A stretch of DNA of 64,000 nt, from sequence record NC_054912.1. The stretch is one strand, 5' to 3'. Shown piece after piece: positions 1-39,667 of the stretch. The position numbers and the translations under genes were made by a program. Origin of the DNA: Escherichia phage vB_EcoM_F1. The stretch's first letter is position 1; each line of letters begins with the position of its first letter. The notes under the pieces were generated by a model, which was not told the DNA's origin, made no database searches, and saw only the letters and a list, made by a program, of their open reading frames with translations.

Positions 1-2714
<2,714 letters not shown>

Positions 2715-2742
2715 TATTAAAGCATATTAAAGAGGATTAAAA

Positions 2743-4722
2743 ATGACTTTATTATCTCCGGGCATTGAGCTCAAAGAAACTACGGTTCAAAGCACCGTGG
2801 TTAATAACTCTACTGGTACAGCAGCTTTGGCCGGTAAATTCCAGTGGGGTCCTGCTTTTCAGATTAAACAGGTTACAAATGAAGTAGATTTAGTTAATAC
2901 TTTTGGTCAACCAACCGCTGAAACTGCTGACTATTTTATGTCTGCGATGAATTTCTTGCAGTACGGAAATGACTTACGAGTAGTTCGTGCTGTTGATAGA
3001 GATACCGCTAAAAACTCATCTCCGATTGCCGGTAATATTGAATACACAATTTCTACCCCAGGTAGTAACTACGCAGTTGGAGATAAAATCACGGTCAAAT
3101 ATGTTTCAGATGCTATTGAAACTGAAGGTAAAATTACTGAAGTAGACGTAGATGGAAAAATTAAGAAAATTAATATTCCTACTGCAAAAATTATCGCTAA
3201 AGCTAAAGAAGTCGGTGAATATCCAGCACTAGGTTCTAACTGGACTGCGGAAATTTCTTCATCTTCCTCTGGTTTAGCTGCAGTAATAACTCTTGGAAAA
3301 ATTATTACTGATTCTGGTATTTTATTAGCTGAAATTGAAAATGCTGAAGCTGCTATGACAGAGGTTGGCTTTCAAGCAAATCTCGAAAAATACGGAATTC
3401 CAGGAGTAGTAGCTCTTTATCCAGGCGAATTAGGCGATAAAATTGAAATTGAAATAGTATCTAAAGCTGACTATGCAAAAGGAGCTTCTGCATTACTCCC
3501 AATTTATCCAGGTGGTGGTACTCGTGCATCTACTGCCAAAGCAGTGTTTGGATATGGACCACAAACTGATTCACAATACGCTATTATAGTTCGTCGCAAT
3601 GATGCTATTGTTCAAAGTGTTGTTCTTTCAACTAAGCGTGGTGAAAAAGATATTTACGATAGTAACATCTATATCGATGACTTTTTCGCAAAAGGTGGTT
3701 CAGAATATATTTTTGCAACTGCACAAAACTGGCCAGAAGGCTTCTCTGGAATTTTAACTCTGTCTGGTGGATTATCATCAAATGCTGAAGTATCAGCAGG
3801 AGATTTGATGGAAGCTTGGGACTTCTTTGCTGACCGTGAATCCGTTGATGTTCAACTGTTTATTGCAGGTTCTTGTGCCGGTGAATCTTTAGAAACAGCA
3901 TCTACTGTCCAAAAACACGTCGTTTCAATTGGGGATGCTCGCCAAGATTGCTTAGTATTGTGCTCTCCTCCGCGTGAAACTGTAGTTGGAATTCCTGTAA
4001 CCCGTGCTGTTGATAACTTAGTCAATTGGAGAACTGCGGTAGGTTCATACACTGATAATAACTTTAATATCAGTTCAACCTATGCAGCAATTGATGGTAA
4101 CTATAAGTATCAGTATGACAAATATAATGATGTGAATCGTTGGGTTCCATTAGCAGCTGATATTGCTGGTTTATGCGCAAGAACTGATAACGTATCTCAG
4201 ACTTGGATGTCTCCAGCGGGTTATAAGCGTGGCCAAATTTTGAACGTTATTAAACTGGCTATTGAAACTCGCCAGGCTCAGCGCGACCGTTTATACCAAG
4301 AAGCTATCAACCCGGTAACCGGTACAGGTGGTGATGGTTACGTATTGTATGGTGATAAAACAGCTACTTCTGTTCCTTCTCCGTTTGATCGTATTAACGT
4401 TCGTCGTCTGTTTAATATGTTGAAAACGAATATCGGACGTAGTTCAAAATATCGTTTGTTCGAATTAAACAACGCGTTTACTCGTTCATCATTCCGCACA
4501 GAAACTGCTCAGTACTTACAGGGAATTAAAGCTCTCGGTGGAATTTATGAATATCGTGTAGTTTGCGATACAACAAATAATACTCCATCAGTAATTGATA
4601 GAAATGAGTTTGTTGCAACATTCTACATCCAACCGGCGCGCAGTATAAATTATATCCAGCTTAACTTCGTTGCGACTGCTACTGGTGCAGATTTCGATGA
4701 GTTAACTGGTCTTGCAGGTTAA
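2743..4722 (+). CDS. 18: tail sheath protein gp18
   Basis: 659 aa, MTLLSPGIELKETTVQ...; strong SD; late promoter upstream. Confidence 0.95.
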   Translation: MTLLSPGIELKETTVQSTVVNNSTGTAALAGKFQWGPAFQIKQVTNEVDLVNTFGQPTAETADYFMSAMNFLQYGNDLRVVRAVDRDTAKNSSPIAGNIEYTISTPGSNYAVGDKITVKYVSDAIETEGKITEVDVDGKIKKINIPTAKIIAKAKEVGEYPALGSNWTAEISSSSSGLAAVITLGKIITDSGILLAEIENAEAAMTEVGFQANLEKYGIPGVVALYPGELGDKIEIEIVSKADYAKGASALLPIYPGGGTRASTAKAVFGYGPQTDSQYAIIVRRNDAIVQSVVLSTKRGEKDIYDSNIYIDDFFAKGGSEYIFATAQNWPEGFSGILTLSGGLSSNAEVSAGDLMEAWDFFADRESVDVQLFIAGSCAGESLETASTVQKHVVSIGDARQDCLVLCSPPRETVVGIPVTRAVDNLVNWRTAVGSYTDNNFNISSTYAAIDGNYKYQYDKYNDVNRWVPLAADIAGLCARTDNVSQTWMSPAGYKRGQILNVIKLAIETRQAQRDRLYQEAINPVTGTGGDGYVLYGDKTATSVPSPFDRINVRRLFNMLKTNIGRSSKYRLFELNNAFTRSSFRTETAQYLQGIKALGGIYEYRVVCDTTNNTPSVIDRNEFVATFYIQPARSINYIQLNFVATATGADFDELTGLAG

Positions 4723-4757
4723 TACGGTGCATTCTAAAGGCCTGTTTCGGCAGGCCA

Positions 4758-4765
4758 TATAAATA
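4758..4765 (+). promoter_or_regulatory. late promoter TATAAATA (gene 19, distal)
   Basis: exact TATAAATA in the 18-19 intergenic region. Confidence 0.6.
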
Positions 4766-4816
4766 CACTATATCCTTAATTCTTTAATTCTATATGCCCT
4801 AGGTTAAACATAGGGA

Positions 4817-4824
4817 TATAAATA
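4817..4824 (+). promoter_or_regulatory. late promoter TATAAATA (gene 19, proximal)
   Basis: exact TATAAATA 15 nt upstream of the gene 19 ATG. Confidence 0.65.
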
Positions 4825-4838
4825 CTACAGAGGCTAAT

Positions 4839-5330
4839 ATGTTTGTAGATGATGTAACACGAGCGTTTGAATCTGGTGATTTTGCTCGACCTAACTTATT
4901 TCAAGTAGAAATTTCTTATCTTGGACAAAATTTTACGTTTCAATGTAAAGCCACTGCTTTACCAGCTGGTATTGTAGAAAAAATTCCAGTCGGATTTATG
5001 AACCGTAAAATTAACGTAGCAGGCGATCGTACATTCGATGACTGGACTGTTACAGTAATGAACGATGAGGCACATGATGCTCGCCAGAAGTTCGTTGATT
5101 GGCAAAGCATTGCTGCGGGACAAGGAAACGAAATTACTGGTGGAAAACCTGCAGAGTATAAAAAGAGCGCTATCGTTCGTCAATATGCTCGTGACGCTAA
5201 AACAGTAACAAAAGAAATTGAAATTAAAGGTCTGTGGCCTACTAACGTGGGTGAACTTCAATTAGATTGGGATTCAAACAATGAAATCCAAACATTTGAA
5301 GTAACTCTTGCTCTCGATTATTGGGAATAA
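4839..5330 (+). CDS. 19: tail tube protein gp19
   Basis: 163 aa, MFVDDVTRAFESGDF...; two TATAAATA boxes upstream. Confidence 0.95.
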   Translation: MFVDDVTRAFESGDFARPNLFQVEISYLGQNFTFQCKATALPAGIVEKIPVGFMNRKINVAGDRTFDDWTVTVMNDEAHDARQKFVDWQSIAAGQGNEITGGKPAEYKKSAIVRQYARDAKTVTKEIEIKGLWPTNVGELQLDWDSNNEIQTFEVTLALDYWE

Positions 5331-5362
5331 AATGAATGGGGAGAAATCCCCATCCTGCTTAA

Positions 5363-6987
<1,625 letters not shown>

Positions 6988-24638: not shown

Positions 24639-25561
24639 TGTATTCTTTAGAGGAATTTAATAATCAAGCAATAAACGCAGATTTCCAACGTAATAATATG
24701 TTTAGCTGCGTTTTTGCAACAACTCCATCAACTAAAAGCTCTTCGTTGATAAGTTCAATTAGCAACTTTTCTTATAATAACTTGGGCCTAAATTCAAATT
24801 GGTTAGGATTAACTCAAGGTGATATTAATCAGGGAATTACCACGCTAATTACAGCTGGCACACAAAAACTGATAAGAAAATCAGGGGTTAGTAAATATCT
24901 TATTGGTGCCATGAGTCAACGTACTGTCCAGAGTTTATTAGGCTCATTTACAGTTGGTACATATTTAATTGACTTCTTTAACATGGCATATAACTCATCT
25001 GGATTGATGATATACTCTGTAAAAATGCCAGAGAATAGATTATCCTATGAAACTGACTGGAACTATAATTCTCCTAATATTCGTATAACTGGGAGAGAAT
25101 TAGACCCTTTGGTTATTTCATTTAGAATGGATTCAGAAGCTTGTAACTATCGTGCAATGCAAGACTGGGTTAACTCCGTTCAAGACCCAGTAACTGGATT
25201 ACGTGCTTTGCCACAAGATGTCGAGGCAGATATTCAGGTTAATCTTCATTCTCGTAATGGATTGCCTCATACTGCGGTGATGTTCACCGGATGCATTCCA
25301 ATATCAGTGAGCGCTCCTGAGTTATCATATGATGGAGATAACCAAATAACTACATTTGATGTTACTTTTGCGTATAGAGTGATGCAGGCTGGAGCAGTTG
25401 ATAGGCAAGCTGCGCTTGAATGGCTTGAATCTGCTGCTATAAATGGTATTCAAAGCGTTCTCGGAAATAGTGGAGGTGTTACTGGACTATCTAATTCGCT
25501 TTCACGACTTAGTAGACTAGGAGGAACCTCAGGAAGCATTTCAAATATTAGTATACTATGA
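24638..25561 (+). CDS. 54: baseplate tail tube initiator gp54 (3' end possibly frameshifted)
   Basis: 307 aa here versus about 320 aa recalled for T4; the +2 frame continues to a stop at 25603-25605 just before the terminator hairpin. Confidence 0.85.
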   Translation: MYSLEEFNNQAINADFQRNNMFSCVFATTPSTKSSSLISSISNFSYNNLGLNSNWLGLTQGDINQGITTLITAGTQKLIRKSGVSKYLIGAMSQRTVQSLLGSFTVGTYLIDFFNMAYNSSGLMIYSVKMPENRLSYETDWNYNSPNIRITGRELDPLVISFRMDSEACNYRAMQDWVNSVQDPVTGLRALPQDVEADIQVNLHSRNGLPHTAVMFTGCIPISVSAPELSYDGDNQITTFDVTFAYRVMQAGAVDRQAALEWLESAAINGIQSVLGNSGGVTGLSNSLSRLSRLGGTSGSISNISIL

Positions 25562-25607
25562 CAGGGATTGTCAATTCGCAGAGTAAAATATTAGGAGCAA
25601 TATAACA

Positions 25608-25636
25608 ATGGGGACCTTTCGGTCCCCATATTTTTA
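25608..25636. terminator. terminator between convergent 54 and the alt-region operon
   Basis: GGGGACC-TTTC-GGTCCCC hairpin followed by ATATTTTTATTT. Confidence 0.7.
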
Positions 25637-25924
25637 TTTACGGAATGAAATGAAAGCAGAAACTGAAGCAACTAAACTGTCTTCAATATAAACTTCAATT
25701 TTTACCGGAGCTTCTGACTCAAATTTACCTGTTACTACACCCTGAAAAATACTTTCAGTCTGTTCTGGCTTTGAAAAATTTTCAGAAGGAAAAATTCCAA
25801 ACTTTTTATCTGTTCCGAAAATTTTGATAAATTCATCATAAACTGCTTCATTAAAAGCATTATCAGCAGGAATAACGCCTTCAACTACAAGTTCTTGACC
25901 TAAAAAGCGTAAAGAAGATTTCAT
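25634..25924 (-). CDS. hypothetical protein (alt.-3 position)
   Basis: 96-aa ORF with SD GAGGA, directly downstream of a sigma70-type early promoter. Confidence 0.6.
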   Translation of the reverse strand: MKSSLRFLGQELVVEGVIPADNAFNEAVYDEFIKIFGTDKKFGIFPSENFSKPEQTESIFQGVVTGKFESEAPVKIEVYIEDSLVASVSAFISFRK

Positions 25925-25955
25925 TTTGTGTTCCTCATGTTATGTCAGTAAGACT

Positions 25956-25984
25956 ACTATAACACAACACGAGGGACTTGTAAA
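25956..25984 (-). promoter_or_regulatory. sigma70-type early promoter (copy A)
   Basis: minus strand GTTTACA-N17-TATAGT with TGn extension; leader and SD GAGGA follow. Confidence 0.6.
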
Positions 25985-26336
25985 CTACATTTTGAACTTT
26001 TTAGTACGCGTAATAGGCATGCGTCGATTTTATACTGTTTCATTGTTTGAAGAGCAGTATCAAAAACAGCATTAATGACACCAATTGGATTTCCACCCAA
26101 CTTAACTAATGATAGTTTCTCATTAACACCTATCATTACGATATGCATCATTTTGTCGCCTGGTTTAACGTTTTATTTGTATCACCGCCAGAGGTGTATG
26201 TACAAAATCTAAATCCAGGAAGCACGCTTTCTTCGCCGGCTTGAATAGCAAAAATTTGTGGTATTTTATGCTTAGGATTTAAGTTAACAACCGGCGCCGA
26301 AGCGCCGTCAAATAATTATGTAATAAGTTCCATGAT
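25957..26336 (-). pseudogene. degenerate tandem copy of the alt 5' region
   Basis: starts ATG GAA CTT ATT ACA then TAA (MELIT*); downstream frame encodes MMHIV...QTMKQYKIDACLLRVLKS matching Alt QTMRQYKIDACMLRILKS; DNA 26160-26336 is alignable to 28200-28388. Confidence 0.7.
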
Positions 26337-28388
26337 TTATCCTTGAACGAACTTGTAAGGCATGTTTGCAATATCTATGCAAGACGCAATAATTCCAAGA
26401 GATGATTCTACTTTCTGTTTAACATTTGATGAAACAAATGATGCAAAGTCAACTCTGTCTTCTATATCACCTGTCATTGTAACCAATTCACCAGTTTCCA
26501 TTAAATGGTCTCCGTCATAGATTACCGATTCGGTGAGTTCTTCTGTGGTCATAACTTCAGCTTGAATAAGCTTGTTGTTAGTTCTAACTGTTCCATCGTT
26601 GTAAGATGCATCAGTTATTTTATTAACTTTGACCATTAATCCACGTGGCAAAATGACTTCCATTTCATTTGAAGGCGCTAAACTTCCACCGGGTAAAACA
26701 ACATTGACCTTATCAGCCCCAGTAATAACCCATCCAATTCCAACTAAATTATCGCTAGAATTTACTAGTCCTTCATCAGTTTTATCAATAGAAACGCTTA
26801 GACGCTTTTCGTCTGGTAAAACACCTATAGATGAATCAGTCATCCAAGTACCAAAAATATTTGGATATAATGATGTTGACACAAAGTTTCTAAAATAAAA
26901 AACTCGATTTTTTACCATTGCTTCATATATTGAAGGTAACATTCGTTGTGAACGATACAAAGTAATACCTTTTGGTAATCGTTCACCATTTTTAAAGGCT
27001 GAATCTAAATTATCAATGGCTTGTTCTATTTCAGATGCTGTTAAAATACTTGTACGCTCATCTGGATTATATAATCCCAAAAGAGCATTATTCATGTCTA
27101 CATATCCTGAACCTACATATTCACGAATTCCGCGTTTTTGCGCTGGTGTGTATTTAGATGAATCTTTATTTTCGACTATAGGATGTAATGACCATCCAGC
27201 GGTAAGAGCATATCCACGTAATTCTCTTCGAATAATCTTTGTTTTTATTGCATTCCAAGAATTTTGTACTAACTCATTTGCAGCATCTTGGTTTAAATGC
27301 GAATGTCTGTTAATATTTCTTTCAAACCAAGCACCTTTATATTTTTCTAAAGTATCATCGACGATAGAAGCAATAGTTTCTAAAGTTTTTATTGAAGTAA
27401 TAGATTCTTTTCGTAATTTTTCTAAAGCTTTATTTTTTATTTCTGCATTAATAATGGATTCTTTATCTTCAGGAATTATAGAAGCTTCTCTGAATGTCAT
27501 TCCAGCTGTAACACTGCTAAGAGCATTCTCTAGTGCAAATCCTGAAGTAGAAATAACAGTTAATTCATTAGCATCAGAAATTAAAGGAGCGTCAGCAGGT
27601 TTATTTAATTCTGCTGCTGAAGCCTCAAATTTTTGAAACATCGGCGTTTCAAATCTAGAAGATTCCAACGACTGACTTTGTGCAATTGCTCTACGTGAAA
27701 TTTTAACTTTAACGATTACAGCTTGGTCAGAACGTTTATCATTTTCTTGTGCAATAGATGCTGCAATTGCCTCATTTTTAGTTACTTGAGCTCCAGTATC
27801 TTTATTGATATAAACATCACCGACCTTCGATTCAACTTTAGTAAAGAGCTCGGTACTAATTTCCGGAACTCCTGGAATGTCTTCTAGTGATACATTTTTG
27901 CGATGTATAAGAATATATGCATACTTTTTATCATAATCCCAGAGTTCCTTAAGAAGGACGTATCTGCCACCTGAACGACTACGGATAAGTCTATCAGCAA
28001 TAACTTGAATTTGTCGAGCTTGGCCAGCAGTTTTAGACTTAAGAATACGAAGCATACAAGCATCAATTTTATACTGACGCATTGTTTGCATTGCAACAGT
28101 AAAAACCGAATTGATATAATTAATTGGGCTTGGACCAAGACCTTTCAATTTAGCAATTGAACCTTTAGCAGTTAATGTAAAAGGAACAATATGCATCATT
28201 TTATCGCCCATCTTTAAATCGCGATTAGTATCACCTCCAGATGTATAGGTACATAAACGAAAGCCTGGTTGTTCAATTGCATCATCAACATGAACTGAAA
28301 AAATTTGCGGTATTTTCTTCTTTGGATTTAAGTTTGTAATTGGAAGAGTAGTATCTTCGTCAAATAATTCTGTAATTAGTTCCATCAT
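26337..28388 (-). CDS. alt: Alt ADP-ribosyltransferase (packaged into heads)
   Basis: 683 aa, MMELITELFDEDTTLPITNLNPKKK...; late promoter 21 nt upstream. Confidence 0.93.
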   Translation of the reverse strand: MMELITELFDEDTTLPITNLNPKKKIPQIFSVHVDDAIEQPGFRLCTYTSGGDTNRDLKMGDKMMHIVPFTLTAKGSIAKLKGLGPSPINYINSVFTVAMQTMRQYKIDACMLRILKSKTAGQARQIQVIADRLIRSRSGGRYVLLKELWDYDKKYAYILIHRKNVSLEDIPGVPEISTELFTKVESKVGDVYINKDTGAQVTKNEAIAASIAQENDKRSDQAVIVKVKISRRAIAQSQSLESSRFETPMFQKFEASAAELNKPADAPLISDANELTVISTSGFALENALSSVTAGMTFREASIIPEDKESIINAEIKNKALEKLRKESITSIKTLETIASIVDDTLEKYKGAWFERNINRHSHLNQDAANELVQNSWNAIKTKIIRRELRGYALTAGWSLHPIVENKDSSKYTPAQKRGIREYVGSGYVDMNNALLGLYNPDERTSILTASEIEQAIDNLDSAFKNGERLPKGITLYRSQRMLPSIYEAMVKNRVFYFRNFVSTSLYPNIFGTWMTDSSIGVLPDEKRLSVSIDKTDEGLVNSSDNLVGIGWVITGADKVNVVLPGGSLAPSNEMEVILPRGLMVKVNKITDASYNDGTVRTNNKLIQAEVMTTEELTESVIYDGDHLMETGELVTMTGDIEDRVDFASFVSSNVKQKVESSLGIIASCIDIANMPYKFVQG

Positions 28389-28408
28389 ATCCTCTCTAGT
28401 GTTTATTC

Positions 28409-28416
28409 TATTTATA
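28409..28416 (-). promoter_or_regulatory. late promoter TATAAATA (alt)
   Basis: minus-strand TATAAATA 21 nt upstream of the alt ATG. Confidence 0.65.
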
Positions 28417-28440
28417 AAATTAAAGGCCCGAAGGCCTTTA
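28410..28440 (-). terminator. terminator after the gene 30 operon, upstream of alt
   Basis: AAAGGCC-CGAA-GGCCTTT hairpin with T-rich minus-strand tail. Confidence 0.55.
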
Positions 28441-28626
28441 ATAATCTAACGGTAAGAGAGTACGATATATTTCAAACTTTGGACCTTTTTCATAGGCATC
28501 AAATGTTTCTGTGAATTTATTATAAGCATATGCATCTACAAATTCGAGAATGACTTGTGATACAGAAGTAGAAACATCTCCACCTTCTTTTTGAGCAATG
28601 ACAATTGTTTCTAAGTAAGCTTTCAT
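28438..28626 (-). CDS. small acidic hypothetical protein, start overlaps ligase stop
   Basis: 62-aa ORF; ATGA start/stop overlap with gene 30; terminator hairpin downstream. Confidence 0.5.
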   Translation of the reverse strand: MKAYLETIVIAQKEGGDVSTSVSQVILEFVDAYAYNKFTETFDAYEKGPKFEIYRTLLPLDY

Positions 28627-30086
28627 AGACCAGTTACCTCATGAAAATCACCAAATACATCCTCGAATGTATTAGCTTTAGTTTTATCTTCGCGTAAACG
28701 AATCGCAATCGGAAGAAATAATTTAACGTAATCAGTGCGGCCATCAGATTTTAACCAACCGTTGCATTCGCACTCTAGAATTTTTCCAATATAATAATTT
28801 TGGTTTTCCATAATGCGAGTACGGTCAAGTTCATGTGATTTTACGCCGGCTTTATCTTTTAAGCCTGAACCAGCATTTACCTTAATTTTTCCACACTCTG
28901 ACTCAAGAATAAATCCACCTGCTTTAGTAGGGTCTTTACGGTGAGGATAAATTCCTACAATTTTTAAATCAACATCAATTACTTCTTTAAATTTATAGAG
29001 ATTTTTTGAACGAGCATTTTCCCATAATCCATCGATATTTTTGAGAATAATACCTTCAAGACCTTGGTCAATATACTTTTTATAAATTACCTTAGCTTCA
29101 TCTAGGTTATTTACTACCTGGTTTTCAATTAAAATTACTTTATCATAGCCTGATGTCATTTGTTCTAGTTTAGAAAAACGTACATCATATTTCAAACGAA
29201 ATGCAGGAAGACCGTATATTTCTACCAACGGGACATAATCCCAAACCTGAAACTTCATGCATTGAGCTTCTTTTTCAGAAATGGTTCCCTTTAAAGATTT
29301 ATTAGCGATTCCATTAGAAGTAGTACGTGATTCAGCTACTTCGGCGAATTCTTTGGCTTTACTAATTTCAGGATAAGCATCAAAAAGAAAATCTAGGCCT
29401 TCTGGCTCCTTTTTAACTTGCTCATGGTATACCAATTCGCCATCAATTAACACGCCTTCTGGATGAATCTGGCGGGCTTCAGCGGTCATTTTGATTAATT
29501 CTTCCTTAAGAAGATCTAATCCTAGATATTCATTACCAGCTCGTGATAAAAGACGAACATCATCTAATTCATCACCTCTGACTTCGGCAAAGCACCGAGC
29601 CCCATCAGCTTTTAACTGGGCAAAGGCTGGAAATTTGATATTCTTATTAATGCCTTTTTCATCATAAGAACTTGCAAGCATTTGAGGTTGTTCAGGAATT
29701 AAACCTGACCAAACTTTGTTTGCAATAGATACTGAAGCACCACATTCAAGGTCTCGCATCATCACTCGACGCAAAACTTCAACATCATCTTTTTTACCAT
29801 CGGTGATATATCCAGTTAATTCCTCAATTGCTGCATTTCCAGTCAATTTCCGAGTAGCTAATGTGAATTCAATGAAGTCAAGCATATCGGTAAGAGTCAA
29901 CATTCCAAAACTCTGGGTAGCAATACCAGGTTTAGGCCATTTCTTGATATAATACTGCAACCCACGAGAATAAGTCAGACGATATACTCGTTTAAGCAAT
30001 TCATTATCTTTATTCTTTTCAAGAATTGCTTGCTTCTGCTTAGTTGAACCAATAGATGCTATTTCGTTCAGAATTTTAAGAATCAT
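28623..30086 (-). CDS. 30: ATP-dependent DNA ligase gp30
   Basis: 487 aa, MILKILNEIASIGSTKQKQAILEKN...; adenylation lysine motif KADGAR. Confidence 0.97.
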   Translation of the reverse strand: MILKILNEIASIGSTKQKQAILEKNKDNELLKRVYRLTYSRGLQYYIKKWPKPGIATQSFGMLTLTDMLDFIEFTLATRKLTGNAAIEELTGYITDGKKDDVEVLRRVMMRDLECGASVSIANKVWSGLIPEQPQMLASSYDEKGINKNIKFPAFAQLKADGARCFAEVRGDELDDVRLLSRAGNEYLGLDLLKEELIKMTAEARQIHPEGVLIDGELVYHEQVKKEPEGLDFLFDAYPEISKAKEFAEVAESRTTSNGIANKSLKGTISEKEAQCMKFQVWDYVPLVEIYGLPAFRLKYDVRFSKLEQMTSGYDKVILIENQVVNNLDEAKVIYKKYIDQGLEGIILKNIDGLWENARSKNLYKFKEVIDVDLKIVGIYPHRKDPTKAGGFILESECGKIKVNAGSGLKDKAGVKSHELDRTRIMENQNYYIGKILECECNGWLKSDGRTDYVKLFLPIAIRLREDKTKANTFEDVFGDFHEVTGL

Positions 30087-38759: not shown

Positions 38760-39109
38760 TTAGAAAGGTCCTGGATGTCTTCTGCGAACTTGTTGAAGGA
38801 GTTGTTGATTTGTTTTTCAACCAATCCTGGCTTATGAGCCACCACATCCGCCTTCTTTGCATCTTTGCGCAGTTTTTCATTTTCACGCTCAATAGCAGCA
38901 ATTGCCTCACGATTTTTATTATTCATCGCATCAATATAATTATACTGAATTCGCAAATTATTTAATGCTAAAGCGTTTTCATTGGCCGTTTTTGTAATTT
39001 CAGTAACTGATGTTTCTAATCTTTCTACCTTATTTTTTAAAATAATAGATGTTCCGCCAAATGCTATTACAAGTAATAGCAATCCAGCTGTAAAATTACT
39101 TACATGCAT
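38756..39109 (-). CDS. i-spanin (Rz-like, N-terminal TM helix plus coiled coil)
   Basis: 117 aa; hydrophobic N-terminus FTAGLLLLVIAFGGTSIIL followed by charged helical region; directly upstream of the o-spanin. Confidence 0.7.
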   Translation of the reverse strand: MHVSNFTAGLLLLVIAFGGTSIILKNKVERLETSVTEITKTANENALALNNLRIQYNYIDAMNNKNREAIAAIERENEKLRKDAKKADVVAHKPGLVEKQINNSFNKFAEDIQDLSK

Positions 39110-39606
39110 AAAGTTTTAATAACCTCTATAATATCGTCTTGAGAAAGACCGTTAATTAAAATATGATGTTCAGCTGGAGATTTAGAAATTTTAAAGCATG
39201 CCTCAACATCTTCTGCCATATCCGATGCACTACGGTTTGGATTACTAATACCAAGGCGGTGTTTTCCCGTCAAAGGATTAACGATGATATAGCATTTGCA
39301 GTTATTGATATGAACATTAGGTTGAGTCTGATTAATGAACACTTCACAATCATACTTAGCGAGTTGATTTTCTAAAAAGACTTTCATCTCTTCAACCGCA
39401 TCAGGAAGCATATCACGGGCTTGCTCAAGACGACGATTTCGATATTCTTTAATGGTCGTTTTCCGCTTGACTTGCTTAGCTAAATCTTTCTTAAGATCAG
39501 TGATATATCCAACTCGACGATTTCCTTTGAATACAGAAATCCCATCTGTAGTATCACCGTATGCTTCAACGACCATTTCAGTAGTAATAAGTTGTAAATC
39601 CATCAT
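39100..39606 (-). CDS. alc: Alc, inhibitor of host transcription on cytosine-containing DNA
   Basis: 168 aa, MMDLQLITTEMVVEAYGDTTDGISVFKGNRRVGY...; early promoter upstream. Confidence 0.9.
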   Translation of the reverse strand: MMDLQLITTEMVVEAYGDTTDGISVFKGNRRVGYITDLKKDLAKQVKRKTTIKEYRNRRLEQARDMLPDAVEEMKVFLENQLAKYDCEVFINQTQPNVHINNCKCYIIVNPLTGKHRLGISNPNRSASDMAEDVEACFKISKSPAEHHILINGLSQDDIIEVIKTLCM

Positions 39607-39634
39607 AAAGTCCTCATGTTATGTCAGTAAGACT

Positions 39635-39663
39635 ACTGTAACACAACACGAGGGACTTGTAAA
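39635..39663 (-). promoter_or_regulatory. sigma70-type early promoter (copy B, alc)
   Basis: minus strand GTTTACA-N17-TACAGT; 53 of 54 nt identical to copy A. Confidence 0.6.
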
Positions 39664-39667
39664 CAGC

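Follow-up and report, generated by a model that had tools for sequence, protein, structure and literature searches.

Directly downstream of alt, the gene for an NAD-protein ADP-ribosyltransferase that is packaged in the phage head, the genome of Escherichia phage vB_EcoM_F1 (NC_054912.1) carries about 350 nucleotides that resemble the 5′ part of alt itself. Where did this stretch come from, and does it still serve the phage? A first-pass annotation, made from the sequence of the window (a 64,000-nucleotide stretch of the genome, to which all positions refer unless another record is named), had taken it for a tandem copy of some 380 bp of the alt 5′ region that is now decaying, with a surviving fragment that could still be expressed as a small packaged peptide.

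The alt locus

The 3.1-kb stretch around the remnant matches Escherichia phage vB_EcoM_FN (MZ170041) at 100% identity and many Tequatrovirus genomes, T4 among them, at 96–98%. The gene order, alt.1, alt, remnant and alt.-3 converging on gene 54, is the same as in T4, with genes 54 and 48 lying on the plus strand and convergent with the minus-strand alt genes. The name alt2 is used here for a second full-length alt paralogue directly after alt. The features of the locus are as follows.

28623–30086, minus strand: gene 30 (DNA ligase)
28438–28626, minus strand: alt.1, 62 aa (Pfam Phage_blade)
26337–28388, minus strand: alt, 683 aa, the head-packaged ADP-ribosyltransferase, recognized from its ORF and Pfam match
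25985–26333, minus strand: alt2 remnant (codons 1–116 plus the final 11 nt of the gene), orthologue of T4 alt.-1 plus alt.-2
25634–25924, minus strand: alt.-3, 96 aa, the next intact gene downstream of the remnant (Pfam PF17602, DUF5498, E = 5e-64)

The alt product matches Pfam PF03496 (ADPrib_exo_Tox) at residues 375–615 (E = 3e-34), and is 100% identical in vB_EcoM_FN and ~98% identical in T4-like relatives where it is annotated as Alt. Upstream of alt (28400–28445, minus strand) lies a terminator with a UUCG tetraloop, ATTAAAGGCC-TTCG-GGCCTTTAAT and then a series of T's (−13.5 kcal/mol, z = −3.7), and directly after it comes TATAAATA, the T4 late-promoter motif; this arrangement is consistent with late alt expression for packaging. 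The alt.1 ORF has a full-length match to PF24647, “Phage blade protein” (E = 2e-29), while most records call it hypothetical. At the other end of the locus, between the converging alt.-3 and gene 54 (25608–25629), a perfect 9-pair hairpin, ATGGGGACC-TTTC-GGTCCCCAT, is terminator-like on both strands and carries a bidirectional-terminator annotation in phages fPS-2 and e11/2.

Similarity of the remnant to alt

The sequence observations of the first-pass annotation were borne out. Three bases past the alt TAA, the minus strand restarts with ATG GAA CTT ATT ACA TAA, so that the frame opened by the ATG (26331–26333) closes at codon 6, after MELIT, with the TAA at 26316–26318. Further on, a 64-codon frame is present as described, and two reading frames can therefore be placed on the remnant.

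26316–26333, minus strand: former alt2 start, a five-codon mini-ORF (MELIT, then stop) with an AAGGA Shine-Dalgarno sequence within the last alt codons
25957–26151, minus strand: 64-codon frame, MMHIV...LLRVLKS followed by 12 out-of-frame codons, orthologue of T4 alt.-2 (67 aa)

The longer frame is homologous to the N-terminal region of Alt: its product matches Alt residues 64–118 with 58% identity (BLASTP, E = 1e-18). At the DNA level, 26138–26343 align with 28186–28393 at 70.5% identity (E = 8e-21), and a second piece pairs 26018–26076 with 28057–28115. Taken as a whole, the remnant shares 221 of 335 aligned bases (66.0%) with the first ~350 nt of alt. A shuffle control, proposed along with the original observation, gave 91.5 bits for the real alignment vs 18.4 ± 2.0 (maximum 26.5) for 200 shuffles. 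The similarity between remnant and alt is far above chance, and low complexity is not its source. Comparison with T4 alt.-1/alt.-2, likewise proposed at the outset, shows the remnant to be their orthologue, with 96.5% identity over 421 nt.

An intact second alt gene in relatives and the origin of the remnant by deletion

Phage Ozark (NC_054927) shows what once may have stood at this position. Its alt gene (2416–4509 of the retrieved segment) is followed, after a gap of 3 nt, by a 685-aa alt2 (4513–6570; YP_010072758.1), annotated as “Alt-like RNA polymerase ADP-ribosyltransferase.” Ozark Alt2 carries PF03496 at residues 416–620 and is 41% identical to the Alt of vB_EcoM_F1, with the best conservation between Alt and Alt2 in the first ~240 residues. 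The remnant is 94% identical to Ozark alt2 over nt 1–348, and the match resumes at 98% from nt 2039 into the downstream region; the alt2 ribosome-binding site, the start codon, a hairpin (discussed below) and the final 11 nt of the gene have all been kept. Within Ozark alt2, the 9-mer CTAAAAAGT occurs at nt 340 (codons 114–116, phase 0) and again at nt 2039 (codon 680, phase 1), 1,699 bp apart, and the remnant holds it once.

25996–26004, minus strand: deletion junction with one surviving copy of the 9-bp microhomology CTAAAAAGT, its flanks matching both Ozark sites

Past the junction come 11 nt (TCAAAATGTAG) that correspond to the end of alt2, its last codons and stop codon, and the promoter region of alt.-3 adjoins them. 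Because the remnant is 94% identical to alt2 vs 66% to its own alt, because the last codons of alt2 follow the breakpoint, and because the same 9-mer stands at both breakpoints, it is best explained as a full-length paralogue cut by a 1,699-bp deletion. This deletion joins the ends out of frame and removes codons 117–680, and with them the catalytic domain (416–620 in Ozark Alt2). The earlier description of a decaying tandem copy of about 380 bp therefore holds in part: the remnant is indeed a paralogous copy of alt that bears disabling mutations and encodes no ADP-ribosyltransferase, but it is not a duplication of ~380 bp only, since relatives carry alt2 at full length.

The junction, CTAAAAAGT followed by TCAAAATGTAG, is identical in 12 of 12 remnants, namely those of vB_EcoM_F1 (the same as that of vB_EcoM_FN), T4, fPS-2, AV119, VEc20, F25, GRNsp7, slur03, Pu-Krd-SF4, Pu-Krd-SF5 and two IMG/VR contigs. 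These were compared with eight intact alt2 genes, from Ozark and seven other phages retrieved with an intact counterpart at the same position. A scan of IMG/VR with an exact junction 20-mer returned two contigs, too few to serve as a population sample, and GenBank phage records were used instead. There, a 101-nt junction probe aligned over its whole length with 89 of 485 matching records; the others match its right half only, which means that sequence is present between the two halves. An intact, 685-aa alt2 thus follows alt in about 396 of the 485 (~80%). Judged by these records, the truncated state, that of T4 included, is the minority condition, and the two-alt state the majority.

One of the intact genes, that of Escherichia phage APTC-EC-2A, matches alt exactly over at least 28 nt (CTGGAGGTGATACTAATCGCGATTTAAA; nt ~555–582 of the retrieved segment, codons ~48–57), at a site where other alt2 genes differ from alt at many positions. 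The patch looks like gene conversion between the tandem paralogues.

Further lesions in the truncated copies

The twelve remnants differ in the damage that they carry in addition to the large deletion. Four types of lesion were found.

Codon 6, GAA to TAA: 5 of 12 remnants (vB_EcoM_F1/vB_EcoM_FN, fPS-2, AV119, GRNsp7 and slur03)
−1 frameshift in an A-run (AATAAAAAC to AATAAAAC): 10 of 12 remnants, all but fPS-2 and AV119; in vB_EcoM_F1 at 26169–26177, minus strand, where AATAAAAACG of intact alt2 has become AATAAAACG (A5 to A4), which splits the frame and corresponds to the alt.-1/alt.-2 boundary in T4
9-bp in-frame deletion (CTTAAAAAC), between 26100 and 26101: 1 of 12 remnants, vB_EcoM_F1 only
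Further −1 at the junction A-run: 1 of 12 remnants, F25 only

Every one of the twelve has at least one of these lesions, and none of the four types was seen in the eight intact alt2 genes sampled. With three of the four, the copy in vB_EcoM_F1 is the most degraded of the twelve. Moreover, the lesions occur in all combinations, and the haplotypes are mosaic, in keeping with recombination between co-circulating phages or with repeated slippage in the A-run. The lesions that would disable the gene thus vary by lineage (a nonsense codon, −1 frameshifts at two sites and a 9-bp deletion), as is characteristic of a pseudogene.

Substitutions and diversity

Substitutions private to the remnants, that is, relative to the eight intact genes, are spread 4:4:5 over codon positions 1:2:3, with P→L, E→G, G→D, N→D, G→S and F→L among them. 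For intact alt2, the distribution of segregating sites is 3:1:20, with the one gene-conversion patch excluded. The two distributions differ (Fisher p = 0.0097), although the samples of 12 remnants and 8 intact genes are small. An even spread over codon positions is, as far as these alignments go, the direction expected for a loss of coding constraint.

The rest of the polymorphism among remnants (2:1:8) consists mostly of alleles that are also found in intact alt2, and the 34% divergence from alt would therefore be mainly old, having separated two functional paralogues. Moreover, since alt2 polymorphism is so strongly biased toward third positions, this divergence would have arisen under selection, not by decay. 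The description of the remnant as decaying was consequently right for a few real lesions, but most of its distance from alt is the old distance between two working genes (3:1:20 in intact alt2).

Nucleotide diversity in the remnants is low (π = 0.025, vs 0.105 for third codon positions in the neighboring 3′ end of alt and 0.066 for those of alt.-3). This could reflect residual constraint, and to that extent it counts against loss of function. However, low diversity and an open downstream frame are equally expected if the deletion-bearing copies share a recent ancestor while their flanking sequences are freely exchanged with the larger pool of intact genomes. Low diversity was rejected as evidence of constraint, because carriers of the deletion coalesce at or after that event and most of their polymorphisms are shared with intact alt2.

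A stable hairpin after alt

The first part of the remnant contains a predicted secondary structure.

26292–26307, minus strand: all-G:C six-pair hairpin with a UUCG tetraloop, CGGCGC-UUCG-GCGCCG, 30 nt past the alt stop

Its predicted stability is −11.2 to −12.8 kcal/mol in a genome of ~35% GC, and all 12 remnants and all 8 intact genes have it unchanged; across these 20 sequences, the first 95 nt of alt2 contain two segregating sites. In intact alt2, the same bases are coding sequence, codons 9–14 (D-G-A-S-A-P). The window contains eight C(UUCG)G hairpins, this one included, and others of them sit just after genes. A terminator scan did not report the hairpin, the tail of which (GTTGTTAACT) has no T-run, and a role as the intrinsic terminator of alt was rejected on this ground and on the absence of a terminator annotation in phage e11/2. 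It is possible, though doubtful, that the hairpin acts as a 3′ stabilizer of alt mRNA, protecting its 3′ end. An Rfam scan of 25400–28700 (E ≤ 1) yielded two sub-threshold chance matches, neither of them within the remnant. An inverted repeat at the equivalent position in alt, GAAGA-TACTAC-TCTTC, was dropped as a candidate, as its folding was that of shuffled sequence (z = −0.04).

Reading frames and the question of a packaged peptide

The alt2 ribosome-binding site is kept (AAGGA, six bases, ATG), and leads into the frame that stops after five codons. The ATG of the 64-aa frame is preceded only by a 3-base AGG; this frame is three codons shorter than T4 alt.-2 by reason of the 9-bp deletion, and its final 12 codons are out-of-frame read-through into promoter sequence. 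A Pfam search of the 64-aa frame and of T4 Alt.-1 and Alt.-2 found no family, and hence no PF03496 catalytic domain. Two observations count against the pseudogene reading. The MMHIV...LKS frame is open in all twelve remnants, and in T4 the stop of alt.-1 overlaps the start of alt.-2 (ATGA), an arrangement that would permit translational coupling. The upstream context varies between phages, and neither the start of the 64-aa frame nor any such coupling is therefore conserved.

The N-terminal propeptide of Alt consists of six residues, MELITE, and gp21 cleaves after ITE-6 (PMC5694885). Neither propeptide nor gp21 motif is complete in vB_EcoM_F1, where the codon for Glu-6 is TAA and the first residue of the 64-aa frame corresponds to Alt residue 64. 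In T4, the RNAs of alt, alt.-1 and alt.-2 belong to one temporal class, “middle,” and time-resolved proteomics detected Alt as a “late” protein and lists Alt.-1 and Alt.-2 as “NA,” or not detected (PMC9697503, Table S2), a result to be read with the caveat that shotgun proteomics readily misses small proteins. The supplements on T4 virion mass spectrometry (PMC5694885) do not mention Alt.-1 or Alt.-2, which points neither way as to their presence in the virion. With a stop at codon 6, a 64-aa frame that lacks the propeptide and no detection of the T4 counterparts, the small packaged peptide suggested in the first-pass annotation finds no support. The idea is less implausible for T4 Alt.-1, which keeps MELITE, yet Alt.-1 went undetected too.

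A probable pseudogene and its alternatives

All things considered, the remnant is very probably a pseudogene: the stump of a full-length alt2 that was truncated by deletion in the lineage that includes T4 and vB_EcoM_F1, has decayed since then, and no longer yields a functional protein. Close relatives have the intact counterpart, and the codon-position bias of that counterpart has been lost in the stump, albeit in a small sample. According to this reading, a deletion between the two copies of CTAAAAAGT, whether single or recurrent, would have taken 1,699 bp, codons 117–680, from alt2. The stump would then have evolved without constraint at the protein level, the lineage of vB_EcoM_F1 gaining the codon-6 stop, the −1 frameshift in the A-run and the 9-bp deletion. 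Today it is most likely transcribed as an untranslated 3′ trailer of alt transcripts, in which ribosomes starting at the kept alt2 site would halt after five codons and make no functional protein.

A different origin was assumed by the first-pass annotation and is implied in the wording of the T4 RefSeq record, in which the first ~380 bp of alt alone were copied downstream and then decayed to 66% identity. That the remnant corresponds to the 5′ part of alt only, and sits directly after alt, agrees with such an event, as does the T4 phrase “duplication of the first part of gene alt.” A partial copy of alt would, however, have no reason to match the 5′ part of a full-length paralogue at 94% identity and its own supposed source at 66%, to continue past the breakpoint with 11 nt that close that paralogue (its last codons and stop), or to show the same 9-mer at both of the paralogue's breakpoints; moreover, the third-position bias of paralogue polymorphism argues that the 34% divergence did not come from decay. 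A partial duplication is accordingly hardly credible. The origin of the stump in alt2 would still be compatible with its being retained for a function, either in the hairpin and 5′ ~100 nt as the 3′ end of alt mRNA, or in a 64–67-aa micro-protein that modulates Alt packaging or activity. The open frame in 12 of 12 remnants, a diversity below that of flanking synonymous sites and the hairpin unchanged in 20 of 20 sequences can be cited for retention, and all of them are compatible with neutrality; retention for either purpose is improbable.

Were the stump kept as a cis-acting RNA element, with the hairpin and its surroundings forming a functional 3′ end of alt mRNA, as stabilizer or attenuator, its complete deletion would be deleterious. 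An all-G:C hairpin of −11 to −13 kcal/mol in a genome of ~35% GC, placed 30 nt past the alt stop, invariant in 20 of 20 sequences within a 95-nt segment that has only two segregating sites, and similar in kind to other C(UUCG)G hairpins just after genes in the window, points in that direction. It has no T-run, though, and was scored as a terminator neither here nor in the annotated e11/2 genome; most phages carry it within the coding sequence of alt2, its four invariant third positions are statistically unremarkable, there is no covariation to draw on, and it would account for the retention of ~50 nt at most, not of 350. An RNA element of this kind is conceivable but less likely than not. Far less can be said for a functional micro-protein encoded by the 64-aa frame (T4 Alt.-2), an N-terminal piece of Alt that would compete with or regulate Alt, or enter proheads. 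In its favor are the frame that is open in all twelve remnants, the diversity in remnants below the flanking synonymous diversity, the good conservation between Alt and Alt2 in their N-terminal ~240 residues, and the presence of RNA over these ORFs in T4 infection. Against it, the protein is missing from T4 proteomics, the last 12 codons run out of frame into promoter sequence, and the six-residue propeptide with its ITE-6 cleavage site is lacking. Furthermore, the upstream context changes from phage to phage (a stop, a frameshift or neither), the ATG follows no more than a 3-base AGG, vB_EcoM_F1 has lost three codons inside the frame, and the private changes within it are G→S, F→L and one synonymous substitution. 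A working micro-protein is thus very improbable, and a pseudogene remains the preferred reading of the locus.

The downstream border

The remnant is bounded by the control region of alt.-3, two elements of which can be placed.

25956–25984, minus strand: early-promoter-like site TTTACA-17-TATAGT with TG, from a promoter scan; it bounds the remnant and is not part of it
25930–25977, minus strand: leader stem-loop that includes the alt.-3 Shine-Dalgarno sequence (−23 kcal/mol, z = −4.1)

Together, the promoter and leader element of alt.-3 span 25925–25984 (minus strand), and alt.-3 of T4 is early at both the RNA and protein level (PMC9697503, Table S2). The stem-loop pairs the −10 region with the Shine-Dalgarno sequence, so that only read-through RNA, and not transcripts begun at this promoter, could form the hairpin in full. 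A 54-bp cassette from this border occurs twice in the window, 98% identical, at 25932–25985 and 39611–39664 (minus strand), upstream of two early genes; the second copy precedes a 168-aa alc-like ORF (39100–39606) just after rnlA. The cassette comprises an early-promoter-like GTTTAC ... TATAGT/TACAGT and a leader ending in a GAGG Shine-Dalgarno sequence.

Significance and comparison with known systems

The remnant is already known and annotated, and it is a real but ordinary feature. The T4 RefSeq record traces alt.-1 and alt.-2 jointly to an old duplication of the initial part of alt, interrupted by a stop codon, and the fPS-2 record labels its copy N-terminal Alt-like and a putative pseudogene. 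[quoted passage not shown] What the present comparison adds is the origin from a full-length paralogue, the exact deletion and the spectrum of lesions. The significance of the stump itself goes little beyond annotation hygiene: the T4 reference genome and automatic annotations derived from it enter alt.-1 and alt.-2 under “hypothetical protein” and in some cases “ADP-ribosyltransferase,” whereas the two are parts of a single pseudogene truncated by deletion. To those studying Alt function, T4 would be a natural alt2 knockout; two distinct Alt-type enzymes are encoded, if not injected, by most of its relatives, whose intact alt2 is the gene worth studying. Finally, the locus is a clean natural case of microhomology-mediated deletion (9 bp, 1,699 bp lost), with later lesions reshuffled among co-circulating phages.

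Naming in the records is uneven. Intact alt2 is labeled alt.-2 (RB9, RB32), alt_1/alt_2 or a second Alt, and the name alt.-2 is shared by the T4 fragment of 67 aa and the intact RB9 and RB32 gene of 685 aa. Through automatic annotation, remnant ORFs of 61–92 aa are called “ADP-ribosyltransferase,” “putative RNA polymerase-ADP-ribosyltransferase” or “hypothetical protein.”

The border of the remnant recalls the PeSL (promoter-early stem-loop) cassettes known from T4-like phages (Arbiol et al. 2010; Comeau et al. 2014), in that it combines an early-promoter-like site with a strong stem-loop. As in those cassettes, the border element recurs, here 13.7 kb away before another early gene; the deletion at this locus used a 9-bp repeat inside alt2, not the cassette repeat. 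Tandem duplicates of alt are also known from other genera, compared here by description: Nolan et al. 2006 (PMC1524935) list T4 alt.-1 and alt.-2, RB49ORF183c and 44RRORF188c as paralogous alt duplications, with 44RRORF187c full-length, so that one copy is sometimes fragmentary there as well. Among the tequatroviruses, the intact alt2 of Ozark encodes 685 aa with PF03496, whereas the remnant is interrupted and has lost codons 117–680. The closest counterpart is that of T4, where alt.-1 (T4p199, 61 aa) and alt.-2 (T4p198, 67 aa) occupy the same place between alt and alt.-3, with 96.5% identity, the same junction and the same −1 frameshift; vB_EcoM_F1 differs in that TAA at codon 6 cuts its “alt.-1” to five codons, and in an “alt.-2” of 64 vs 67 aa.
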